From positions 1 to 57,745 of IMG/VR virus record IMGVR_UViG_3300009506_000036: a stretch of 57,745 bases of DNA; one strand, 5' to 3'. Shown here piece after piece: positions 34,670 to 46,896 of this stretch. Source of the DNA: a virus (lineage: Duplodnaviria > Caudoviricetes). The notes beneath the pieces are model-generated. The model saw nothing but the letters and a program-made list of their open reading frames with translations, was not told the origin of the DNA and did not search any database. The position numbers and the translations under genes were made by a program. Within the stretch, counting starts at the first letter, position 1; the number at the start of each line of letters is the position of its first letter.

Positions 34670-35062
34670 CTAGAGGTCGAGGCCTAGTCTGGCGATGACC
34701 GAGTTCAGCTTCGCCGCAAGAGTGGCCACGGCATCAGCAGCAGTAGCCACGCTGGATACAGCAGCGATGGTGTCACCACCGCTGGACCCGCCAGAGTTGT
34801 CTGTAAGAGAGTTCACGTCAGTGCCGTCAGAGGTCACCATGTGAACCCACGCACTGCCTGTGCTCATGTAGATCTCGTACGGTGCCGAGGAGCCGACAGC
34901 TGCGATGCAGCCATCGTAAGCGCCTGGGTTAGGAAGGGCTCCGGTGTTGGCGTAGAGCCCAGGAGCGAACGGAGTCGTACCGATCGCGTCCATGTTGTCG
35001 TTGATGTTGGAATCCCACCCTTGTTCATCGTGGGTGATTGCGGTCAGTGAGGGTCTGCTCAT
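34670..35062 (-). CDS. Small virion fibre/decoration-like protein
   Basis: GW...INDN start; LTDNSGG...ATLAAKLN trimer-like end; last gene of the tail operon. Confidence 0.6.
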   Translation of the reverse strand: MSRPSLTAITHDEQGWDSNINDNMDAIGTTPFAPGLYANTGALPNPGAYDGCIAAVGSSAPYEIYMSTGSAWVHMVTSDGTDVNSLTDNSGGSSGGDTIAAVSSVATAADAVATLAAKLNSVIARLGLDL

Positions 35063-37917
35063 GTCACTCGTTCGACTGTGATCACTACGGGATCGGACTT
35101 GTATCCACCGTTCACGTTGCGAAGGTGGACCTTGAAAGCGGAAGGATACGAGCTGCTGAAGTCGCTGTACAGGTTCGCGTCGGAGTAGGTCCAGTCAGCC
35201 CGAGACCTGGAGTAGACGTTCTTCACGTTGTCCGAGGTATCGGTCACGGTCAGCTCAAAGGAGCCGAAGATGTCGATGCTTCCCGTGGCCTGGCCTGCGT
35301 TGACTGTACCTCCACCGGTGTTTGGTAGGAGACCTGAAACGTAGGACCACACGAAAGCAATGGAGCTACCGCTGACGTAGTAGTTGTTGTTTCCAGACAC
35401 GCGTAAGGCCGAGGGTCGCTGAGGTTTCAGGCTGTTGCCATATAGGTTGACCTCGATCGCCGGGCAGGTTTCCAGAGCAGCGTACGCTGTGTCTGTCCTG
35501 GGCTGTACCTTGATCCACACGGTCCCATTCGGCATGAGGAAAGGACTAACCAGGTGCTGGAGCTGAGAGACATTGAACAGGAAACAGTAATCGCCTGCAG
35601 AGTGATCACTTCTGATGGTGTTGTACTTCGCCCGCAGTAGTCCCCTGAGCTGCCAGGTATCACCGGACACGTTCATGACGTTGCGGCAGAACATGATCTC
35701 GTCGTTGATCACGAGGAGTTGATCACCTCTGCGCCACTTGGCCGTATCGGAGGACAGGTTCGCTGCTCTTGCAACCAGGTCTACCCCAATCTCGGTGAAC
35801 GTAGGACCAAGTTCTGTGTACCAGGCATCGACAGCGTCCATGGCACTGGTGAGGATACCACCAGTGAATGTGTTGGATTCCTCACCAAGGTAGGTATACG
35901 AGGTGTTGTCGGGACTGATCCAGATCGCAGCACTAGCGATGTTGGTATGGGCTCGGATGCGGGGAATGACCAGGCTCTGAGGACCGTAAGGCAGGAGGTA
36001 CATGGGCACCTCGACAGCGGCGTCTGCGAGATCGGGCAGCGGAGGGGGAGGAGGTCCACCAGTGTTCCCACCACCAGGAGATCCGGCAGAAGCGTCAGTT
36101 TTCACAGCGTAGTAGTTGGATACGGCTGTGATGGTGACTGACTCATCAGGTTGCTTTACCTGGGTCTCCATGCAGAGCAATTGGTGGGGTACATCTTCTG
36201 CTGTGAACACCCTGCCTGGTGTGATCATTCTCGCTTCGCGGGAAGCCACGATGGTGAACTTGGCCCCTGAGCCGAGGTCTTCTTGACTTCTCCTGTTGGC
36301 AACTATCTTGGCAGTCTTGAAGTCGATGACAGAGGGAAGACCGACCTTTTTCGCCCTCGCGAGCTCCATATACTGCATGGCTCCGTTGTTGTCGTATCCT
36401 CCGATCGGCATGTCCTTGTACAAGTAGTTGCGATCGGCAAACACGTAGAGCACTCTCTCTGAGGCTTTCACTCTGTGAACAGACGTGATCTCAGGCCTTG
36501 GAGGAAGAATGTGGTCTGGGCCGAGGTGGGGAATGTAGGTAGAGGTAGAGGTCCTGATCGGAACGAACTTGTACTTGGCTGTGAATGGATCGAGCACGAT
36601 GAAGCACCCGATGTCGGTCATCAATTCGGCAAGGATCGAGTCTGCGGTTTCACCATCCCTGGCTTCGATGTTTCCTGCTAGTCTCTCGTTTGCACACAGA
36701 ACACCTAGATCTTCCAGGGAGTCCATGTCGAATAGAGATTGTTCCTGGTGCATACCGTGAGGGAAGTCAGCAAACAACACCTGGGCCATGATGTGAGCCA
36801 TGTTGTACCCATCATCGTTTCCTGGTTTGTAGATGTGAGCATAGGCATCGGAAGCGATGATAGAGCCAGTGAGGTCGACACCAGCAAGGTGGATGACCAG
36901 CCAGGTATGCCCGAACACGGCATCGCCTTCAACATACCAACCGACTCGATCCATCGTGTAGACAGTGTCCGGATTGAGTGTGCTCACACCAGAGATCCTG
37001 AACTTGTCTCCTGTGCGGGGGATCCAGGTAGCATCAGCAAACGGGTCCGTGCCGTTGTACTGCATCCAGGCGTTGGACTTGAAAGCATCCCAGAGCTTGA
37101 TCAACAACACGGGAGTACCGAAGTAACCGTTGTCACTGACCAGAATGGTGTATGCACCGTGAGTTTGGGTGGCCCTCTTGATGAACTCCGAGGTGCTGTA
37201 CGTTTGCTCGATGTAGGCAGGGGTAAGAGACAGAGGATCTCCTTGGACCTCAACCTCGGTCTCGTACTTGATCTCTGGCCACAGCGCCTCATGAGGTGCG
37301 TGAGGGTAGTAGATGTGACAAAAGTAGGGCCATCGGCTGGCAATCGTGGGTGGATCGATGGCACTAGGATCTCCTCCTAGTTCAATGGGCAAGGAGTTGG
37401 CAGCTCCATGCAGACCACCACCGGAACTGTCGTCAATCGGTTGATCTACCTCGCCCCAGAAGATGTACGCGTGACCTAGTTTGTTGATGTAGAAGCTCGA
37501 TCCGCTAGGATGCGTTTCAGGTGAGAGAGGGAAGATGTCGTAGGTCAGACCTCCAGAGCCTGGTGTACCAGGGTAATTCGGTGGTTGGAGATACTCCTCG
37601 TCGATGGTGATGTTGTGGATTGCTTTCGCAGGACCGACGCAGATGTGGTGCCAGCCAGCTTGTCTCTTCGACCAACCTGTGTCGTCTCCCCAGACGATAC
37701 CTAGTTTCCTGACGAAAGCGAACTGTGGAGCAACCAAACGACGACCAATCACCAGCGGAAGGAGCGATCCTCTCTTAGCCAGTGTTTGAGTGTACTCCAT
37801 GTCAGGCGTGCTAGCGCCTTTCATGGCGTTCTTGGACATGATGTAGCTGGCTACACCAAGTCCTACCGCAATCACCAGGAGGATGACTGAGACAGCTGCT
37901 TCTTGGTATTCAATCAC
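35059..37917 (-). CDS. Tail tip / host-specificity protein (GTA megatron or lambda J-like)
   Basis: 952 aa; LPLVIGR, INDEIM...LRGLLRAKYNT...HSAG; follows DUF2163-like and NlpC/P60 genes. Confidence 0.85.
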   Translation of the reverse strand: MIEYQEAAVSVILLVIAVGLGVASYIMSKNAMKGASTPDMEYTQTLAKRGSLLPLVIGRRLVAPQFAFVRKLGIVWGDDTGWSKRQAGWHHICVGPAKAIHNITIDEEYLQPPNYPGTPGSGGLTYDIFPLSPETHPSGSSFYINKLGHAYIFWGEVDQPIDDSSGGGLHGAANSLPIELGGDPSAIDPPTIASRWPYFCHIYYPHAPHEALWPEIKYETEVEVQGDPLSLTPAYIEQTYSTSEFIKRATQTHGAYTILVSDNGYFGTPVLLIKLWDAFKSNAWMQYNGTDPFADATWIPRTGDKFRISGVSTLNPDTVYTMDRVGWYVEGDAVFGHTWLVIHLAGVDLTGSIIASDAYAHIYKPGNDDGYNMAHIMAQVLFADFPHGMHQEQSLFDMDSLEDLGVLCANERLAGNIEARDGETADSILAELMTDIGCFIVLDPFTAKYKFVPIRTSTSTYIPHLGPDHILPPRPEITSVHRVKASERVLYVFADRNYLYKDMPIGGYDNNGAMQYMELARAKKVGLPSVIDFKTAKIVANRRSQEDLGSGAKFTIVASREARMITPGRVFTAEDVPHQLLCMETQVKQPDESVTITAVSNYYAVKTDASAGSPGGGNTGGPPPPPLPDLADAAVEVPMYLLPYGPQSLVIPRIRAHTNIASAAIWISPDNTSYTYLGEESNTFTGGILTSAMDAVDAWYTELGPTFTEIGVDLVARAANLSSDTAKWRRGDQLLVINDEIMFCRNVMNVSGDTWQLRGLLRAKYNTIRSDHSAGDYCFLFNVSQLQHLVSPFLMPNGTVWIKVQPRTDTAYAALETCPAIEVNLYGNSLKPQRPSALRVSGNNNYYVSGSSIAFVWSYVSGLLPNTGGGTVNAGQATGSIDIFGSFELTVTDTSDNVKNVYSRSRADWTYSDANLYSDFSSSYPSAFKVHLRNVNGGYKSDPVVITVERVT

Positions 37918-38477
37918 GGGATCGGCTCCGGTTCTACGATGTCGGGCTCATCCAGATCTTCAGGGGCAATGGGGTCACCAGGCTGCAGCCAGCGGTAAGA
38001 GGAGTTGAGCACTCTATAGGCCCTGTGTAGGATCATGCCATTCATCAAGGCTCCTGCATAGCTGGTTTTCTTCACACCAGGGCCGGTAGCATCCCACAGT
38101 TCGTTGTCATAGCAACCAACAATGTAAGCGTGACCAGGTCCGCCTTGTCTGGGTCCTACTACGAGTACGTCTCCGGGCTGGATGTTTCCATCAATCACCT
38201 TCTGGAAAGGAGCGTACAGTTTGATGATCTGACGCACGGCAGCGTGAGATCTGGCAGGGTTGTGAAGATAAGAGTCAGGAGGGAGGGTGGTGTAGTCGTG
38301 CGTCGTGTTCGACATCTCGTCCATGATCCCTGTGACGAAACGAACACAATCAACACCGATTCCTTTGGCTTGTTGACCAGGAGCGTACGGAGTGCCTTTC
38401 CAGCTGTTGATGACACCTTCTAGTTTCTGTCGAATGCTCTCAAGGCCATTCGACCATGTCCAGTAGGGGAAGCTCAT
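37914..38477 (-). CDS. NlpC/P60 family tail-associated peptidase
   Basis: WKGTPY, GVDCVRFV, QPGDVLV, GH. Confidence 0.88.
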   Translation of the reverse strand: MSFPYWTWSNGLESIRQKLEGVINSWKGTPYAPGQQAKGIGVDCVRFVTGIMDEMSNTTHDYTTLPPDSYLHNPARSHAAVRQIIKLYAPFQKVIDGNIQPGDVLVVGPRQGGPGHAYIVGCYDNELWDATGPGVKKTSYAGALMNGMILHRAYRVLNSSYRWLQPGDPIAPEDLDEPDIVEPEPIP

Positions 38478-39349
38478 GTGTAGAGACCACTCCTCTGGTA
38501 GTTCGGGTTATAGGGAGGAATGCCTACTCCAGCTCCGCCGTGCTGGCTTTCCTTGTTGAATCGAGCGCGGCAGGTGGACAAGAGCTTGTCACACCCGGCA
38601 TACAGTGTGATGTAGCGATCGATCCATAGCTGTGATGGTTGACGAACGGTATGAAATATCAATGGGTCGTGTGACCGCCAGATTCTGATGTCGAGGATGC
38701 AACCTTCGTATTCTGCAAACCCACGAGAGAACCAGTTGTCTTCTTTGCCGGTGACACCTGCGTCGGTCTGTATTGTGAAAGACAGGTTGTCGATCGACAG
38801 TACCTTCACGTTCGATACTGCGTACAAGTTCTTGATAACGCTGCAAGGACCACTGTACAGAGGCCAGATGCAGTCTTGCTCTTCGAACAGGCCGAGGGGA
38901 ACATCCCAGGTGCTCTTCAACGGAGAGGCAACTATTTCGACGAGACCGGACTTGCCCTTGGGCGCTGTGGTACCTGTGAACACTGGTCCTGAGAAGACAC
39001 ACATCAGTTTGCTAGCTGCACTGCCTGATGTTGGTTTGTGCCACTCGAACACGAAGCAGTAAACGGGAGAGTGAGCACCTCCGTCAGCGAGGTAGGTTGT
39101 GAATGAATCAGCAGGGAGTGTGATCTTGATGTCCTTGGCCTTCAGGTCTCCTGTTAGTTTGGGAATGTCTAGCTCCAGTCCTTCGATGGTAGAGTACGTA
39201 CCGCCAGGACCGGGCTGGGCAGAAGGAGCGTCCGTGTACCTGGCCTCGGCGATGCCTAGAGGGAACTCTGCCGATTGCGTTCCATACAAGAAGCGCACCA
39301 GGTAGATGGTGTCTCTTGTTGACTGTGTGAGGGCTGAAGAAGGAGACAT
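38474..39349 (-). CDS. DUF2163/BR0599-like tail hub protein
   Basis: CIWPLYSGPC and GCDKLLSTCRARFN Cys cluster. Confidence 0.85.
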   Translation of the reverse strand: MSPSSALTQSTRDTIYLVRFLYGTQSAEFPLGIAEARYTDAPSAQPGPGGTYSTIEGLELDIPKLTGDLKAKDIKITLPADSFTTYLADGGAHSPVYCFVFEWHKPTSGSAASKLMCVFSGPVFTGTTAPKGKSGLVEIVASPLKSTWDVPLGLFEEQDCIWPLYSGPCSVIKNLYAVSNVKVLSIDNLSFTIQTDAGVTGKEDNWFSRGFAEYEGCILDIRIWRSHDPLIFHTVRQPSQLWIDRYITLYAGCDKLLSTCRARFNKESQHGGAGVGIPPYNPNYQRSGLYT

Positions 39350-40918
39350 CTAGGCTGGAGTGGTGGTGGGTTGAGGAAGGGAGACCCTCATGTGCAGCAT
39401 AGGAGCATACACTGTGACACCCTCTTCTATGTAGTCGATGGAGACCTCCCTCTCGTTCAAGATCTCTGTGATCTCTACTCCGAAGGCCACGGCTTGATCA
39501 GTAGACCATTCATCCGAGTAGGAGTCAGAAGATTGCCGACACTCGATGCACCATCGCACGTTCACGATCTCTCCGTGAGCAGACAGTGTGTCGAGGAGAT
39601 CAATGGTCCAGACCCCTCCACCTGTGTCGATCACTTGAGAGACGCGAGCTATCTCAACAAAGCCGTACTGGTCGTAGACGGCAATGTACTTGAGGTAGTT
39701 GTGAGTGTGCTGCCACTTGCCAGAGGCTGAGACCTGTATCGAGGTAGAAGCAAGGCCCTCAAGATGCCAGATATCATGAGGCAACACAGCCCAGTACGGA
39801 ATGACTCGGCCTCTTCTGGAGTCGAAGAAGTTCAGCCATGTCCAGGCTTCCTCTTTGGAGTAGACCTGTCTCGCTGCTCTCAGAGTGATCTGTGGTGATG
39901 GTCCTTGAAGGAACGAATGCTCGGACTTTCCTACTGTTGCCTTGAAACCTGAACGAGCAAATCCAAGGTCGGGTTCGACGACCCAGTTGTAGTCTAGATC
40001 TACGACAGGCAGACCGTCATAGGTATCGAATGAACTGGGAGCTGTTTGAGCCGAGAAAGGCAATGCACTAGGACCTGGTATTTCATCAAACACCAGTGTC
40101 AGATCGCCGACCCTGTCTGTCCTCAGCTTCATCGAGTCACTGAGGTTAGGCCAACAATCACAGACTGGGACGATGATGTCACCAGCCGATGGAGCAACAT
40201 CAAGCTCGTCGGACGAGCTGAGGATCAACTGAGATGAAGAAGCAGATACGACTATCGTAGCCTGTTGCGTTCCATCAGCATAGTAAACGACCACCTTTCC
40301 GCCGTTGTGGAATCGTCTGTTGGAAAACGATCCAGTGAGCAGGAGTGTAGTGCAGCCACTGTTGGCATAGGTGTAGTCAGGGTACAGAGGAACCTCGACG
40401 TAGTGATCTCCTATGTACAGGAGCCTTCCCCAGAGCTTCTGGATGGTGGCTTGATCGAGGCCTGACCAGCGACACTTGATTGTCCTGTAGGGCTTGGAAG
40501 AGTGAGCAAGACGCGCTTCGGACAACGTCTCTTCACCAGCTGAGAGATCAGAAGGAGCATGGCACTCAATGCTCACTCTATCTACCCAGTTGTGAGGCAA
40601 GAAGTCCTGCAGCGGATCGACAGGGAACGCTGTGATACGAGGCCACGGAGGGGACATCACCTCGGCGCACAAGCGTGTGACACGGGCGAAGTGCCGAGGG
40701 CTGTTGGACATCACCTCGGCTCCCACGCGAGTGACACGAGCCCTGATCGGAGCAGGACACATGACTTCGGCGCAGAGCCTGGTCACACGAGCGTAGTGCC
40801 GCTGGTCGCCTGACATCACCTCGGCTCCCACGCGCGTGACACGAGCGTAGTGCCGCTGGTCGCCTGACATCACCTCGGCACAATACCGGGTGACCTTTGC
40901 GTCACCTCTAGCGCTCAT
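39350..40918 (-). CDS. Distal tail-like protein with five N-terminal ARVTRxxAEVM repeats
   Basis: FFDSRRGR..PYW motif; position between tape measure and hub. Confidence 0.75.
   Translation of the reverse strand: MSARGDAKVTRYCAEVMSGDQRHYARVTRVGAEVMSGDQRHYARVTRLCAEVMCPAPIRARVTRVGAEVMSNSPRHFARVTRLCAEVMSPPWPRITAFPVDPLQDFLPHNWVDRVSIECHAPSDLSAGEETLSEARLAHSSKPYRTIKCRWSGLDQATIQKLWGRLLYIGDHYVEVPLYPDYTYANSGCTTLLLTGSFSNRRFHNGGKVVVYYADGTQQATIVVSASSSQLILSSSDELDVAPSAGDIIVPVCDCWPNLSDSMKLRTDRVGDLTLVFDEIPGPSALPFSAQTAPSSFDTYDGLPVVDLDYNWVVEPDLGFARSGFKATVGKSEHSFLQGPSPQITLRAARQVYSKEEAWTWLNFFDSRRGRVIPYWAVLPHDIWHLEGLASTSIQVSASGKWQHTHNYLKYIAVYDQYGFVEIARVSQVIDTGGGVWTIDLLDTLSAHGEIVNVRWCIECRQSSDSYSDEWSTDQAVAFGVEITEILNEREVSIDYIEEGVTVYAPMLHMRVSLPQPTTTPA
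40652..40900 (-). repeat. Five 51-54-nt tandem coding repeats
   Basis: A(K/R)VTR(Y/V/L)(C/G)AEVM units; two units are near-identical at DNA level. Confidence 0.95.
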
Positions 40919-42022
40919 CTAGCTGTACAGGTGGATGCCGATCTCCGCGTTGTTGATGTCGGAGGCTGTGTACGGGTTGCCAGGGTTGGATGGGTTCTCT
41001 TCGGAGAACAAGTTGAAGTGGGTGTAGACGGTGGTGCTTGAGTCGACAGTGAAACTGTCGATTGCAGCAGTACCATGCACAGAGTCCTTGAACTGCAATT
41101 CGACCACTCTGGAACCGTTGGACTCGATCCGTGCTCTGGCCATGTACCGCACTGCGGTGATGCCGGACGTGATCTGTTGAAGATCGCTGAAGTTGTAGAA
41201 GTCACGTTCTCCTGCAGTGCCAGAGCAGACGTACGCACCATCATCTCTAGAAGGGTTAGCACCGGACTGTTCCTCGTGAACGAGAGACCAGTGGTCTGCC
41301 GCTGACGGCTGTCCGTACTCCTCAGGAGACCACTGCGTCGTGGAGGTATCGGGGGTGACGGTTTCGATGCCCTCGATGATCTGCTCGCCGATGAAGTCGT
41401 TGTTGAGAGATCCGGCACCGTTCAGGACGTAGATATCGTCCATGGCCATGTGGTAGGTGCCGCCACCGTCCTGTAGACCGAAGACCACCTCGTTCACTAG
41501 AGCTGTGACACCATTCACGGTGTTTTGGTTGGTGAGGTTGATGATGGCAGTGCCATTGCGCCTGACCTCGATCGTACCGAGAGTGGAGTGGCAGTAGATC
41601 TTGATCTCGATGTAGTCCCAGCCGTTGCCGGTCTCGATCTGAGCGGACTCACCGAGTTGAGTGCCTCCGCTGGTTTCTCCATCGAACACCCTGAACGTGT
41701 AGTGGGTGTTATCCACGGCTTCGTGAATGCCGAGAGAGATGTGCCTGGTCCCATCGTAGTTGAAACCGGCGACATCACGATCGGTGGCGCTGACACTAGC
41801 ATACGGAACCTGGATACGGAATCCGATCACGTAGGTGGCATGGGAGTCCAGTGTAGGAGTAGTGAAATAGACACCTGGGGTGCCGTCACTCTCCATGGCC
41901 CACAGACTGTTCTGGCCTGGGATGAAACCAGGAGCGGTGTCTCCTACGTAGTCGGCGTACGTAGCGATGTGGTAGGCGTACGATCGTTCAAGCTCGAAGC
42001 CTTCGATCCATTGAATGGTCAT
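40919..42022 (-). CDS. Beta-sandwich (concanavalin/jelly-roll-like) tail adhesin
   Basis: WDYIEIKI...GTIEVRRNG...MDDIYV; ends NPYTASDINNAEIGIHLYS. Confidence 0.7.
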   Translation of the reverse strand: MTIQWIEGFELERSYAYHIATYADYVGDTAPGFIPGQNSLWAMESDGTPGVYFTTPTLDSHATYVIGFRIQVPYASVSATDRDVAGFNYDGTRHISLGIHEAVDNTHYTFRVFDGETSGGTQLGESAQIETGNGWDYIEIKIYCHSTLGTIEVRRNGTAIINLTNQNTVNGVTALVNEVVFGLQDGGGTYHMAMDDIYVLNGAGSLNNDFIGEQIIEGIETVTPDTSTTQWSPEEYGQPSAADHWSLVHEEQSGANPSRDDGAYVCSGTAGERDFYNFSDLQQITSGITAVRYMARARIESNGSRVVELQFKDSVHGTAAIDSFTVDSSTTVYTHFNLFSEENPSNPGNPYTASDINNAEIGIHLYS

Positions 42023-45000
42023 GAGATGAGTGTCCTGATCTCGTCCGAGTAGTTCTCGATCCACCGCAGCTGTGCGGACGAACCAGCTGCGAGAAGTCGT
42101 TCGAAAGTAGCTTCGTCTGCCACCAGCACGGCCCTGGTCACTTGCTCGTTTCCGTTGGCTCTGTTGGTGTCTCTGACGGCTCCACCAGTAGCGAAGCTGC
42201 GTTGACGGGGCTTGGAGACGTTGAAGGAGCGGCGAGCCCCGGAGATCCCTCTGGCGAGCATGGGATCGATCAGACCTCTGTTGAGCAGGTCCATGAAGGC
42301 GTTGCCGTACTTGGCCACTGCTTCAGGACTGATCACCCACTCACCCACACGCGCCCAGATGGGCTCGGTGTCACGAGGATCGATGCCTGCCGGACGGTCG
42401 TACTTGGGCGAGGAGCTGCTGCGAATACGGCCACCTCCTGCGAAGGACTGCGAGCCCTGGCGCATGTGGCTCTGGCTCGGGGAGTACCCTTGCCTGGTGA
42501 TAGCCCGACCTGTAGCACCGCCACCTACGCCTCCACTGGCGGCACCGATGGAGTTGGCAGCCAGGAGCAGTGCAGCAGCTGCGGAGAGCTTGGTGGCCGC
42601 GAGGCCGATCATGATGGAGACCACGTACCATGGTCCTGATGCTCCTGCCAGGCTGCCAGCTGCCGTGGTGAGAGTAGTACCTGCGCCGGATAGGGCAGCA
42701 GCGGCGAGCAACAGCTCTGGTCCAGGATCTTTCGGCCCTTCATCGATTAGTGATGCGAGCACAGCCCCGATCGCCTTGTTGACTAGGTACTCGATGATCA
42801 TGTTCGACAGCATCGCCAGGAACTGCTGAAAGCGTTCAGCGATGGTGGTGTCGGACGATGGATCGAAGGCATCTGCGATCGACGACGAGATGAAGTCGGC
42901 GAAGCCTTGAATGGCGGTCTTGCCCATCTCGACGAAACGCTCGAAGTCGTCGAGAGCAGCTTGTGAGAATTCAGCAGCTCCGGTTTCGAGTCCGAACGAG
43001 ATAGGTTCTTCTTTCCTGCGCCTGGCCTCTTCAGCGAAAGCTGCTTGACGCTTGAGTACTTCTTCCTGCAGTTCGAGTTCCTTGCGAATCTCGTTCTCTT
43101 GCAGTAGTTGGTCGCTACGTAGTTGATCTTGCTCTGCCAGAGGAAGGTGCAAAGCCTTGGCAGCAGCGAGGATCTTGGCGTTGCCTTCTATCTGGCTATT
43201 GAGGGTCTCTTTGATGACGTTGCGACGAGCAACGTCGACTAGGAGCTGTGCCCTAGCCTCTGCCAGTTCCTTGCCCTTGATGTCGATGGTAAGAGCACTG
43301 GAGTATTCATATAGACTGCGTTCTGCAGCAAGCTCAGCGCTCAGTACCCTGAGGTTTTGTTTGGCTTCGAATCTGCGCTCTGCACCGACAACACGGATCC
43401 TGTCAAGGGTGCGCTTGGCGATGATGTTCTCAAGCTCAGAACGTTGTGTGAGCAAGGACACAATGTCTTGTTCAACAGACTTCTCCAGGCCGAGGAGTTT
43501 GATTCGCTCCAGGATTAGTTTTGGGATATCAGCGCTGGTGTCAGAGAACTGCTTGAAGGTCTCGTTCACATACTCGACCTCGTCGCGCACCTTGGCATAG
43601 GCAGTGGAGAGCGTGCCAACCACTTTCTGTTGTGCGATCTCGTCCTCTTTCAACTGGGCCAGAGCTTCGGTGTGACCTTTGCGTTGCGCTTGGATGATGA
43701 GCGCTCGCGTGTTCTCAAGACGTTGTGTGGCTGCGTTCAAGCGGTCCTGGAGGGACAGCATGGCTATACCAGCGCTGAGCCCTTGCTCGGCCAGGGCACG
43801 ATCTCGCTTGTTGAGATCGGAGATATTCTTCTGCGCTCTCAATGCCTGTAGTTTGATGTCGAGCTTTTGTTTCTCGACTTCACCCAATCGAAGGTCGATC
43901 TTGCGTGCTTCCTCCTTGAGCTTGAACTCTTCCTCCGCGATGATCCTACGCTGTTCGAGAGTCGGGCCTTGGAGTCCGATACTGTCGAGGGAGCGCTGTA
44001 GCTCAGCGCTGGTCTGGCGCAGGCTAGCTTCAAGCCTCTGGATCTGCTCAGCCAAGCCTTGGATACCGCGAGTACCACTGCTGACGATTCCAGGTAGCTG
44101 GTTGAGAGCAGCAACCAGATCAAGTGCTTCTTCCTTGGACTCTTTCGTGGCCTCGCCGAAGCCAGACATGGAATCCTTCAGACCGGCAAGGAGAGTTCCG
44201 AGTGTTTCCTTGGCCTTGGCCTTGAGATCAGCCACCATCTCGTCGAATGTCCTGGCGTCGGTGTTCTCGGACATGGCCTTGCCCACCCCGACAGACACTT
44301 CCGTGGCCGCCTCGATCGCAGCTTCAGCAAGCTCTTTGTAGGCGTCTCTCAGCTCGATAGCGTCTTTCTTGGTCTCCTTGGTGTAATCGTCGGTGCGCTT
44401 CTTGAGAGCCTCAAGCCGCTTCTCGACCAGGTCACCTACATCCGCTCCGAAGATTTCGGCTATCTTGATAGCAGCAAGAGCGATGGCAGTGATGCCGTTC
44501 CTGAACAATAGGATGAGACCTTTGATCGCTGCCTTGGCAGGGACCATGCTCGTTAGGAAGGCCACCTTGAGTGTAGCAGCCGCGAGCTTGAAAGCTGCCA
44601 CGAGCGACACCTTGATGATCTTCACCCATGTCTCGAACTTGATCTCTACACCGGTCACGTCCTCCAGGATGTCGATGATCTCCTTGCCGATGAGGGCAGC
44701 CGCTACAACGACTCCCGCCATTGTGGCAATCAACCCGGCGGTGCCTACGCTCATCGTAGCGATAGCTCCAACCGCGGAAGACAACAATCCGAACACTGAA
44801 GTGATCACTGGGATCAGAGCAGTGAATAGACCTACTAGCTTGGTGACTGGAGTGAGGATGAAGAACACGATACCGAGGACACCACCGAGGGCGGCCTTCA
44901 TGGCAGTGATTACCACAAGGGCTTCGGTGAGGGTCCTCACGAAATCTTGAAGATCGATCTCTGGGAGAGCTTCGCTGAGCCCTTCAGCGATGGGCTCGAT

Positions 45001-46896
45001 CAGGTGGGCAACATCCTTGAACCCTGCGATGACCCCCTCGACCATTGCTCCCAGGATCTCAGCCGTGGTCCCTAGAGCCCTTCCAAGAGCATCTGCGGCT
45101 GCAGCCAGGTCGGTGACGTTGAGCACCTTGCGGAGACGTTGAGCCTCCGCGACGGCCCTGCGCATGCCGTCGAAGATCGCTGTGACGACTACCAGCGCTT
45201 TGGGGTTGATGGTGATTCCTGTATCCTCGATCTCGACCAGCGAGTTCAGGATATCGGAGAGCAGATCTTTCAACTCCATGAAGAAGTCGGAGCTGCCCTG
45301 CCGCAGCAACTCGTTGATCGCATCACCGAGGCGAGCAATGATCGCATTGTACAGCGAGAGCGCTTCTTTGCCTGCCTCGGTGAATGCTCTGAATCTGTCG
45401 TTCAAGAACTCGGCAAGGACTCCCATCTCCTTGGCGTTCTTGATGTCAGCGTTAGTGATCCCCAGAACAGCCGCGATGCGTGTGGTTCGTAGCTGGATGG
45501 TGCCTTGAAGGATCGAGCGGATCTCTTCGGCAAGTTGGTTTTGGGCTAGACCGATTGCAGCGGCTGCCTGGGAGATCTGGATAGTGAAGTTACGAATCTG
45601 GTCGACATCGAGACCGGCAGCGATCCCGGGCCCGAGGGCGATCTGATACGTATCAACCAACTGACGGAAGGTAGCGACAGTTGTGAGGGCGTCCTTTCTG
45701 AGGAGCGCGATCTGGCGGCGCGATTCCTTGATTGCCAAGGCCAGTTGATCTTGGGCATTGGCGGCACCACCGATGGCGGTTCTGACCTCGCCGGTAGCTG
45801 TGATCAGTGAAGCAATACCAAGGATGCTCTGCTCGATAGCAGCATTGTACTTGACAGCTCCAGCGATCAAGGCATTGAACGCCTGGATCACCTTCCTGAC
45901 AATCAGGAAGGCTGCGAAGATGCCGATGAGCCGTCTGAAGGTGAAGAAGACCCGGTTGGCTCCAGTACGTGCTCGGTGGAATACTTGAGTCAGTGTGGAC
46001 ATGCTGGAGCGCAGCGTGGCGGCATGCTGCGACATCTTGGCCATGTACTGACTGGACCTGTTCGTGCTCTGGTTGAACTTCTGGAAGAACGGATCTGCCG
46101 CCTTCATCTGGTCGACCATCTCTTTCACTTGAGCAGCGTGCTTGGCGGCAGCGAATCGTGTCGCTGCTTCCTGCTCTGTGGTCAACCCAGTCGGTCCTCT
46201 TCCTTGTTGTTGGAGTAACTGCTCCTTGGTCTGCTTCGCCTCGGCGGCAGCGATCTGTCGCTGCACGGCTAGTTGTGCAGTGAGTGTTTGTAGCTCTTTG
46301 TTGTTGAGAAGGGCCTGTTCTTTGGTCAGAGCGTTCTGAGCTTCTAGCACCTTCAGCTCAGCCAGCCGTTCAGGCTTGAGCCCGGTCTGTAAGTCTCTTC
46401 CCTGCGCTGATAACTTCTTCGCTACTGCGAGCTTCTGGTAGCCTGAGGAGATCTTCCTGACTACAGCAAGTTCTGTGACGAGGTTGCGAAGCTCCTTGTT
46501 CTGCAGACGAGCACGAGCTGCGGCCAGGCTCTTCTGTAGCTTGAGACGCTCTTGCTCTACGACGGTCAGCTCTTTGGTGACCTTCGCTTCCTGTTGTTTA
46601 CTAGCTACTGCCTTCTTGTGTTCCTTGTTCGCTTCTCTCTGTGCAGTCACGCTCTTGTTGAGCGCCTTGGTAGCTCTGACAGAGGCTTCAGCACCCTCCA
46701 CGGTGACTTTCGCCAGGTCGCGGAGGGTGTTCTTGAGTTGACGGGCTCCTGTACCTAGACGGCTGACATCCTCGCGGAAGGCCCTGAAGGATCTACGACT
46801 CTTGAGCAGGCCACGACGGAATTCATCGAGACCCTGAATCGCTTTCTCTGATTCAAGTTCGATTTTGTACCGTAGTGAACCCTGGTCAACAGCCAT
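42019..46896 (-). CDS. Tape measure protein
   Basis: 1625 aa; helical Ala/Leu-rich with hydrophobic segments; FAGGG...GEWVI C-terminal motifs. Confidence 0.92.
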   Translation of the reverse strand: MAVDQGSLRYKIELESEKAIQGLDEFRRGLLKSRRSFRAFREDVSRLGTGARQLKNTLRDLAKVTVEGAEASVRATKALNKSVTAQREANKEHKKAVASKQQEAKVTKELTVVEQERLKLQKSLAAARARLQNKELRNLVTELAVVRKISSGYQKLAVAKKLSAQGRDLQTGLKPERLAELKVLEAQNALTKEQALLNNKELQTLTAQLAVQRQIAAAEAKQTKEQLLQQQGRGPTGLTTEQEAATRFAAAKHAAQVKEMVDQMKAADPFFQKFNQSTNRSSQYMAKMSQHAATLRSSMSTLTQVFHRARTGANRVFFTFRRLIGIFAAFLIVRKVIQAFNALIAGAVKYNAAIEQSILGIASLITATGEVRTAIGGAANAQDQLALAIKESRRQIALLRKDALTTVATFRQLVDTYQIALGPGIAAGLDVDQIRNFTIQISQAAAAIGLAQNQLAEEIRSILQGTIQLRTTRIAAVLGITNADIKNAKEMGVLAEFLNDRFRAFTEAGKEALSLYNAIIARLGDAINELLRQGSSDFFMELKDLLSDILNSLVEIEDTGITINPKALVVVTAIFDGMRRAVAEAQRLRKVLNVTDLAAAADALGRALGTTAEILGAMVEGVIAGFKDVAHLIEPIAEGLSEALPEIDLQDFVRTLTEALVVITAMKAALGGVLGIVFFILTPVTKLVGLFTALIPVITSVFGLLSSAVGAIATMSVGTAGLIATMAGVVVAAALIGKEIIDILEDVTGVEIKFETWVKIIKVSLVAAFKLAAATLKVAFLTSMVPAKAAIKGLILLFRNGITAIALAAIKIAEIFGADVGDLVEKRLEALKKRTDDYTKETKKDAIELRDAYKELAEAAIEAATEVSVGVGKAMSENTDARTFDEMVADLKAKAKETLGTLLAGLKDSMSGFGEATKESKEEALDLVAALNQLPGIVSSGTRGIQGLAEQIQRLEASLRQTSAELQRSLDSIGLQGPTLEQRRIIAEEEFKLKEEARKIDLRLGEVEKQKLDIKLQALRAQKNISDLNKRDRALAEQGLSAGIAMLSLQDRLNAATQRLENTRALIIQAQRKGHTEALAQLKEDEIAQQKVVGTLSTAYAKVRDEVEYVNETFKQFSDTSADIPKLILERIKLLGLEKSVEQDIVSLLTQRSELENIIAKRTLDRIRVVGAERRFEAKQNLRVLSAELAAERSLYEYSSALTIDIKGKELAEARAQLLVDVARRNVIKETLNSQIEGNAKILAAAKALHLPLAEQDQLRSDQLLQENEIRKELELQEEVLKRQAAFAEEARRRKEEPISFGLETGAAEFSQAALDDFERFVEMGKTAIQGFADFISSSIADAFDPSSDTTIAERFQQFLAMLSNMIIEYLVNKAIGAVLASLIDEGPKDPGPELLLAAAALSGAGTTLTTAAGSLAGASGPWYVVSIMIGLAATKLSAAAALLLAANSIGAASGGVGGGATGRAITRQGYSPSQSHMRQGSQSFAGGGRIRSSSSPKYDRPAGIDPRDTEPIWARVGEWVISPEAVAKYGNAFMDLLNRGLIDPMLARGISGARRSFNVSKPRQRSFATGGAVRDTNRANGNEQVTRAVLVADEATFERLLAAGSSAQLRWIENYSDEIRTLIS

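Follow-up and report, generated by a model that had tools for sequence, protein, structure and literature searches.

What do five near-uniform copies of an 11-residue motif, A(K/R)VTRxxAEVM, do at the very start of a phage tail protein? The question is raised by a 57,745-nucleotide (nt) stretch of viral DNA (IMG/VR record IMGVR_UViG_3300009506_000036; the whole stretch is referred to here as the window), in which the gene for a two-domain jelly-roll (JR) protein is followed at once by the gene for a 522-residue distal tail protein (Dit) that opens with these copies. The best-supported explanation, by modeling and by comparison with related loci, is that the repeats are donor strands that dock JR subunits encoded immediately upstream, and we consider it probable.

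Five strand motifs at the start of a tail gene

The features on which the argument turns are given below by their positions in the window.

40919..42022, minus strand: JR protein, 367 amino acids (aa); ATG at 42022, stop codon TAG at 40919-40921
41408-42022, minus strand: concanavalin A (ConA)-like N-terminal domain of the JR protein, about aa 1-205, assigned from AlphaFold2 (AF2) and Foldseek
40922-41359, minus strand: C-terminal beta-sandwich of the JR protein, about aa 222-367, assigned from AF2
40916..40921, minus strand: junction of the JR and Dit genes, where the stop TAG of the one abuts the start ATG of the other, in one frame
39350..40918, minus strand: Dit, 522 aa, of the JBD30/Chi double-domain type by profile and fold matches
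40655..40900, minus strand: array of five putative docking strands, Dit aa 7-88
40868-40900, 40814-40846, 40760-40792, 40709-40741, and 40655-40687, minus strand: strand motifs 1 to 5
39458..40621, minus strand: Dit body, about aa 100-487, two tail-tube-like sandwich domains with inserted domains
39353-39457, minus strand: C-terminal tail of Dit, aa 488-522, predicted to be disordered

The open reading frame (ORF) directly after the JR gene does begin with five in-frame copies of the motif, as a preliminary description of this DNA had stated. The copies (AKVTRYCAEVM, ARVTRVGAEVM, ARVTRLCAEVM, ARVTRVGAEVM, and ARVTRLCAEVM) occupy Dit residues 7-17, 25-35, 43-53, 60-70, and 78-88; they are separated by linkers of 7, 7, 6, and 7 aa, which gives a unit spacing of 17-18 aa. 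A loose regular expression for the motif, applied to all six frames of the window, matched five times, each time inside the array. Tandem Repeats Finder reported a repeat at 40653-40894 (period 54, 4.5 copies, 68% matches, score 181).

The same description had noted that two copies are near-identical in DNA and had proposed a recent expansion. Near-identity was found for one exact 41-nt stretch (40785-40825 and 40839-40879, spacing 54), which spans a linker and its flanks; an exact 23-nt repeat also recurs in the array at a spacing of 105. It does not extend to whole repeat units, which are 49-84% identical (25-43 of 51 nt in ungapped pairwise comparison; 70-78% for 93-nt copies). Copies 3 and 5 are identical in all 11 residues although 7 of their 11 codons differ, all of them synonymously, copies 2 and 4 differ in a single codon, again synonymously, and amino acid changes among the copies are confined to motif positions 2, 6, and 7. 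Because the copies have drifted synonymously while the peptide was kept, selection acts on the peptide, and the array is more than a fresh duplication. A recent expansion can be upheld for the 41-nt stretch only, since most copies are synonymously diverged.

Motif positions 6 and 7 alternate along the array, the three odd-numbered copies having (Y/L)C and the two even-numbered ones VG, and the signal at lag 35 is as strong as that at lag 18. Double units may underlie the array, perhaps as a remnant of the arrays with two alternating strand types that are found in relatives and described below. Cysteines in the array region lie at Dit residues 13, 49, 54, and 84.

In the public database, the gene call stored for this contig (P0001, 408 aa) begins at a GTG at codon 115. 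By this call the entire repeat array (40574-40918) is annotated as noncoding, an annotation problem in which the repeats are omitted completely. If the call were correct, the repeat DNA would be untranslated and the gene would begin at residue 115. Apart from the call itself, the evidence points the other way, and we regard this as the least credible of the readings considered here. The copies vary synonymously with an unchanged peptide, and the upstream ATG abuts the JR stop. The nearest Dit homologue, P0002 (56% identity), has four in-frame motif copies, and P0003 (26% identity) has degenerate alternating strand repeats at its N terminus, also in frame. Homologues of the 522-aa protein are encoded at 17 viral loci, 15 of which were aligned (alignment A3) and are the Dit-type loci counted throughout; 14 of these 15 distant homologues keep N-terminal strand repeats in frame, the exception being L009, with a short N terminus of 46 aa. 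Two natural fusions, described below, likewise keep a single strand in frame. As judged from these sequences, the repeats are the translated, constrained N terminus of Dit.

The JR protein and its family

The JR protein matches PHROG 2448, a family of unknown function (E value, 3.9e-26), and has no Pfam match. It carries both end motifs of the PHROG family, MxLxWIEGFE at the N terminus and NP...W T...IN..FG at the C terminus (alignments A1 and A2). The family is large: an exhaustive HMMER scan recovered 5,623 representatives of 50%-identity clusters at E<=0.001. The AF2 monomer (pLDDT 92.1, pTM 0.91) consists of an N-terminal jelly roll and a C-terminal eight-stranded sandwich, the last strand of which covers residues 360-365. 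Matches of this model in the PDB by Foldseek were generic ConA-like lectins, alginate lyases, calreticulin, and CBM66 (probability 1.00; TMt 0.45-0.58). On the model, the N-terminal domain has a ConA-like lectin/glucanase fold, and sugar binding or lyase activity is putative. The family profile found no PDB sequence relative at E<=1. In BFVD, the two-domain fold recurs in many uncharacterized phage proteins (TM up to 0.80), and one look-alike, from Achromobacter phage AchV4, is annotated as a "virion structural protein."

The JR protein ends ...NPGNPYTASDINNAEIGIHLYS, as quoted in the preliminary description, which had suggested that it lacks its last strand and that such domains usually continue into an RVTQ..VEV strand. 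The family does not follow that rule: 10 of 10 near-length homologues stop at the end point of the JR protein. Among JR ORFs at viral loci, 76 of 78 were readable, and 74 of the 76 finish with the terminal motif of the family; the two exceptions are L013, which is cut by the locus end, and L049, which has 212 other residues. The strand motif occurred in 0 of the 76 readable locus ORFs. A missing last strand was not demonstrated either, as the monomer model is confident (pLDDT 92) and strand 360-365 is present in it.

Predicted docking of the repeats on the JR sandwich

Two copies of the JR protein (alignment A2) were modeled together with Dit residues 1-100 (alignment A3). The ipSAE values were 0.71, 0.67, and 0.66 (median, 0.67), and the best of three controls scored 0.00. 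When the mark for judging such scores was calibrated, 58 of 80 solved complexes passed it, as did 2 of 110 mismatched pairs; the calibration holds only roughly for this job, which used two copies and custom alignments. The JR profile has no sequence relative in the PDB, which makes it unlikely that the score reflects a memorized solved complex. The runs share at least 95% of their contacts, and the pLDDT of the partner is at least 53.

In the complex model, Dit residues 39-73 (repeats 3 and 4) contact the two JR copies, and they do so through identical JR positions in each copy (6-12, 196, 198, 211-221, and much of 231-365). The pairs with the lowest error extend from JR residue 298 with Dit residue 44 down to 293 with 50, an antiparallel register with JR strand 291-298. 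Dit residues V45 and L48 also touch JR residues 231, 248, 264-266, 274, 276, 307, and 363, which come from five strands, and the docked strand contacts alternating JR residues 274/276/278, 333/335, and 361/363/365. This geometry fits a strand that adds beside JR 291-298 and packs on the sheet that holds the last JR strand. The proposal that the repeats are beta-strands docking on the upstream JR protein is borne out to the extent that the complex model predicts it, antiparallel to 291-298. Residues of the predicted interface are more conserved than the others (2.29 versus 1.62 bits; Mann-Whitney p 1.3e-7; C-terminal domain alone, p 5e-5), a difference confounded by burial, and 12 of the 30 most conserved JR positions lie in the interface.

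Residue 351 of the JR protein (40970-40972), which lies within the predicted interface, is Tyr; of the 70 family members aligned, at least 90% have Trp there.

The repeats might instead hold JR subunits as a tether that wraps around their surface, as domain I of the phage JBD30 protein gp49 does, with no strand inserted into or added to the sandwich. A JR monomer that is modeled as complete and confident without any partner is what such a tether would lead one to expect. It does not account for the clean antiparallel register (298/44 to 293/50) or for V45 and L48 being surrounded by residues of five strands; the motif itself has a beta-strand pattern, and in the natural fusions the strand comes about six residues after the last JR strand. 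We consider a tether of this kind unlikely.

Fused homologues and the gene junction

Two natural fusions, P0027 (808 aa) and P0052 (819 aa), consist of a JR domain, a linker of about six residues, one strand, and a Dit body. Their strands (TRITHIAVEVV or LRVTYLAIEVL) align with repeat 5 of the window, and their Dit bodies are 27-28% identical to that of the window (E values, 2e-42 and 4e-38). As read from these sequences, the fusions place the strand immediately after the last strand of the JR domain. Because such Rosetta-stone fusions exist, the JR protein and Dit are likely to be functionally linked. The suggested continuation into an RVTQ..VEV strand is real in these two proteins and is rare rather than usual, with fused forms accounting for 2 of the best 150 JR representatives. 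A word-index search for longer fused JR proteins found none, which is weak evidence, and a scan of viral contigs with the fusion proteins showed no fused form in its match table of 27 loci. The loci that matched residues 1-780 of the fusion queries were L045 and L010, both with split genes, and three others.

At the junction in the window, the sequence reads ...IHLYS*MSARGDAKVTRYC, with the Dit ATG at 40916-40918. The JR and Dit ORFs are in one frame and are split by TAG-ATG alone, and read-through would recreate the architecture of P0027 and P0052. On that basis, the main product could be a JR-Dit polypeptide of about 890 aa made by TAG suppression, with the first strand complementing its own JR domain in cis. 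The shared frame, the single TAG followed by ATG, and the fused homologues are compatible with such a product. TAG recoding was judged unlikely, since 9 of the 38 ORFs checked end in TAG and no tRNA gene is present in the window. An ATG right after the stop suits coupled reinitiation, and a cis product would leave four further strands unexplained. Read-through as the main route is, in our estimate, highly improbable.

Association of JR genes with strand repeats

At 40 of 78 viral loci picked for a JR gene, a same-strand ORF with at least two motif copies near its N terminus was found. These strand ORFs range from 68 to 1398 aa and lie downstream of a JR gene, except for two that lie upstream (one each in L005 and L014). 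Some of the remaining 38 loci have divergent strands missed by the profile (L001, L009, L031, L033, and L061), and others may have been cut short by the locus end. The reverse search, with a DNA pattern for two strands 17 aa apart, returned seven loci, five of them on contigs not seen before, and at all seven a JR gene ends where the strand ORF begins. In viral contigs, JR genes and strand repeats go together whichever of the two the search starts from.

The number of JR genes varies together with the type of repeat. All 15 Dit-type loci have two tandem JR genes; of four middle ORFs tested, three matched PHROG 2448 and the fourth matched the JR family profile. The dominant repeat period at 14 of the 15 is 36-39 aa, and the strands there are of two types that alternate, typically 4+3. 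In the window, a single JR gene goes with near-uniform strands at a period of 17-18 aa, and the fusions have one domain and one strand.

Strand arrays head other kinds of proteins as well. Two of these match Pfam DnaT_2 (PF20557; L070 5816-6637, E value 9.3e-10; L011 6044-7324, E value 5.9e-6), one is very large (L072, 1398 aa), and two ORFs consist of little more than strands (L076, 68 aa; L005, 118 aa, cut by the locus end).

In Salmonella phage BAU.Micro_SLP-22 (Casjensviridae; L080 4778-11747), four tandem JR paralogues were seen by eye elsewhere in the tail module. They open MATFFDGFEQ, MLKFMDGFDQ, and MFKFCDGFDH, and the fourth finishes with the C-terminal motif of the family. They are followed by an 880-aa protein with a different N-terminal repeat, of the ..KEYLLR.. 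/ ..PEYLMQR.. type.

The repeats could also form a beta structure of their own, for example a sheet or collar within the Dit oligomer, or bind the tube, the hub, or the host surface, with the JR protein attached elsewhere or not part of the virion. Strands are predicted for the repeats even in the AF2 monomer of Dit, and the numbers of strands and JR genes are not always equal in other carriers. In that same monomer (mean pLDDT 68, with an acceptable body), most of residues 1-95 fall below 50, which speaks against this reading. The two-way gene association, the fusions, the number of paralogues tied to repeat type, and the 0.00 scores of the controls in the complex job also argue against it, and we rate it as still less likely than the tether.

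Identification of the distal tail protein

The 522-aa protein that carries the strands is, by sequence and fold comparison, a JBD30/Chi-type double-domain Dit. The family profile (alignment A3) matched PDB entries 8rk3_U (E value, 1.7e-14; profile positions 141-510) and 8vjh_B (E value, 1.5e-12), and Foldseek of the AF2 model returned 8rk3_D (E value, 2.5e-23; 412 columns, TM 0.52) and 8vjh_B (1.4e-20). T5 pb9 and DT57C Dit matched the model over a single domain only. The protein also matches phrog_1082, "tail assembly protein" (E value, 3.1e-15), and its gene sits between the tape measure gene and the gene for a gpL-like protein with a Cys cluster. At its C terminus is a tail of about 25-35 residues (pLDDT about 30), which P0002 alone of the aligned homologues shares. 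Scanning viral contigs with Dit as the query gave no related locus, and alignment of the window and P0002 against metagenome contigs gave 128 pattern matches with no relative among them.

The preliminary description had assumed a hexameric ring that could display up to 30 adhesins. JBD30 gp49, the homologue, is a trimer with two tube-like domains per chain, as described in the main account of that structure (PDB 8RK3; EMBO J 2024, PMC11445458). By homology, the Dit ring of the window is probably a trimer as well, one that would adapt six-fold to three-fold symmetry, and because of this the likely ceiling is about 15 adhesins per tail rather than 30.

Genomic setting

The genes of the region are all on the minus strand, in the order tape measure-like ORF, JR protein, Dit, BR0599 protein, peptidase-like protein, and megatron-like protein. 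The neighbors of the JR and Dit genes are as follows.

42019..46896, minus strand: tape measure protein, 1625 aa, assigned from ORF and position; adjoins the JR gene upstream
38474..39349, minus strand: gpL / GTA-hub / JBD30-gp50-like protein with a Cys cluster, 291 aa (Pfam Phage_BR0599, E value 8.1e-6; phrog_778)
37914..38477, minus strand: NlpC/P60-like tail peptidase, 187 aa, a weak match (Pfam NLPC_P60, E value 0.021, below the family cutoff; phrog_329, E value 3.2e-5)
35059..37917, minus strand: gpJ / megatron-like tail tip protein, 952 aa (Pfam Rcc01698_C, E value 1.2e-6; phrog_1101, E value 1.9e-24)

The 1625-aa ORF is inferred to be the tape measure protein from its size, coiled-coil-like sequence, and place in the gene order, and the same position upstream of the JR gene is likewise occupied in related loci. 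Farther upstream are genes for a major tail protein with an Ig-like domain, a major head protein, and a protease, and the window as a whole is a contig of the siphophage type. Two public runs, one labeled as a marine sediment metagenome and the other simply as "metagenome," contain at least half of the words sampled from the stretch. Searches against 50,697 phage records, by blastn with the region and by tblastn with Dit, gave zero matches.

Discussion

The sequences establish the repeats and their selective constraint, the homology of Dit, the JR family with its common end point, the fusions, the two-way gene association, and the tie between paralogue number and type of repeat. The donor-strand reading leads to the following scheme, in which the binding and its geometry, the trimer, the occupancy of all five strands, and the sugar binding are modeled or inferred: (i) the five repeats are the translated N terminus of a JBD30/Chi-type Dit, which probably forms a trimeric ring where the tail tube ends; (ii) each 17-18-residue unit would dock, as a strand, a single copy of the two-domain, lectin-like JR protein; (iii) the strand would join one sheet of the C-terminal JR sandwich, antiparallel to 291-298; (iv) consecutive repeats would hold consecutive JR subunits; (v) the outcome would be three lateral arms with up to five ConA-like subunits each, about 15 per virion; and (vi) the arm subunits may act as carbohydrate-directed adhesins or possibly as lyases.

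The closest parallel is phage JBD30. In the parts of PMC11445458 that describe its tail, the fibers are three bent arms, each of three gp47-gp48 heterodimers, residues 2-74 of gp49 "wrap around the tail fibres," and the genes for gp47 and gp48 lie between the tape measure gene and gp49. The likeness to the window lies in the gene order (tape measure, arm gene or genes, Dit, Cys-cluster protein) and in the homologous Dit body. It extends, as far as that description goes, to a Dit N-terminal extension that holds arm subunits in several copies per arm, which parallels the 4+3 alternating strands of the relatives of the window. The window differs in having one arm gene and five near-uniform strands.

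Several points weigh against the donor-strand reading, besides the rough calibration and the burial effect given with the numbers above. The JR-strand interface is a model, in which both binding and geometry are predicted, and the JR monomer is confident without a partner strand, so that an open groove is not demonstrated. Dit-type and other loci are related to each other, and their counts are not phylogenetically independent. JR genes and strands are unequal in number in carriers other than the Dit type: L056, L059, L082, L086, and L088 have five genes and three detected strands, and L030 has three genes and five detected strands. Among the Logan contigs of the best-matching public run, one ends at 40814 and another begins at 40850, both inside the array, and none bridges it, so that the copy number of five rests on the original assembly. 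As candidate homologues of the JR family, JBD30 gp47 and gp48 were rejected (hhalign probability, 0.1%), and they were not among the first 49 Foldseek PDB matches of the JR model; the gp49 N terminus has no sequence repeats. JBD30 is for these reasons an analogy of arm architecture, not a case of homology.

Beyond this locus, PHROG 2448 proteins and RVTRQxVEVL-type strands might constitute a general, modular docking code. A Dit or fiber-like anchor of 68 to about 1400 aa would carry tandem donor strands, the number of strands would set the number of subunits, and the order of strand types would set the order of paralogues in a heteropolymeric arm; the fused, split, multiplied, and alternating forms would then be states of one system. 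We offer this generalization tentatively, as a possibility that we rate almost as highly as its opposite. If it is true, adhesin valency could be changed by simple gain or loss of repeats. If the docking model is right, the JR family, which has no Pfam model and no solved sequence relative, gains a role and a partner, the adjacency of JR genes to proteins that open with these strands is explained, and the number and type of strands become a sequence readout of the valency and composition of lateral adhesin arms in many siphophages. Strand-based arming of phage tails looks widespread.

The known systems that come nearest share parts of this arrangement. A figure legend in PMC11945409 identifies 8VJH as the tail-tip distal tail protein of phage Chi, whose Dit body is homologous to that of the window by the profile and fold matches given above (8vjh_B). 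RcGTA and roseophage R4C resemble the window downstream, with a BR0599 hub, a peptidase, and an Rcc01698_C megatron-like gene; in the parts of PMC7296036 and PMC10276861 that describe it, their Dit differs in being small (about 209 aa) and six-fold, with neither an N-terminal array nor a JR gene. A literature search found no description of these strands or of a partner for the JR family, within a reach that stopped short of the Chi structure paper and the JBD30 appendix figures.

The mode of docking recalls chaperone-usher pili. In donor-strand complementation and exchange, a beta-sandwich accepts a strand donated by a second polypeptide, and hydrophobic residues alternate along the donor. Here, too, the predicted strand comes from another chain and has that pattern. 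The window system differs in that it has no head-to-tail polymer, chaperone, or usher and in that a groove is not demonstrated, and several donor strands stand in tandem on one anchoring chain, each for a separate, complete-looking, lectin-like subunit. A Dit N-terminal extension that holds arm subunits is of a known kind; what would be new is its makeup as tandem, sequence-defined docking strands for a large, uncharacterized, lectin-like family.

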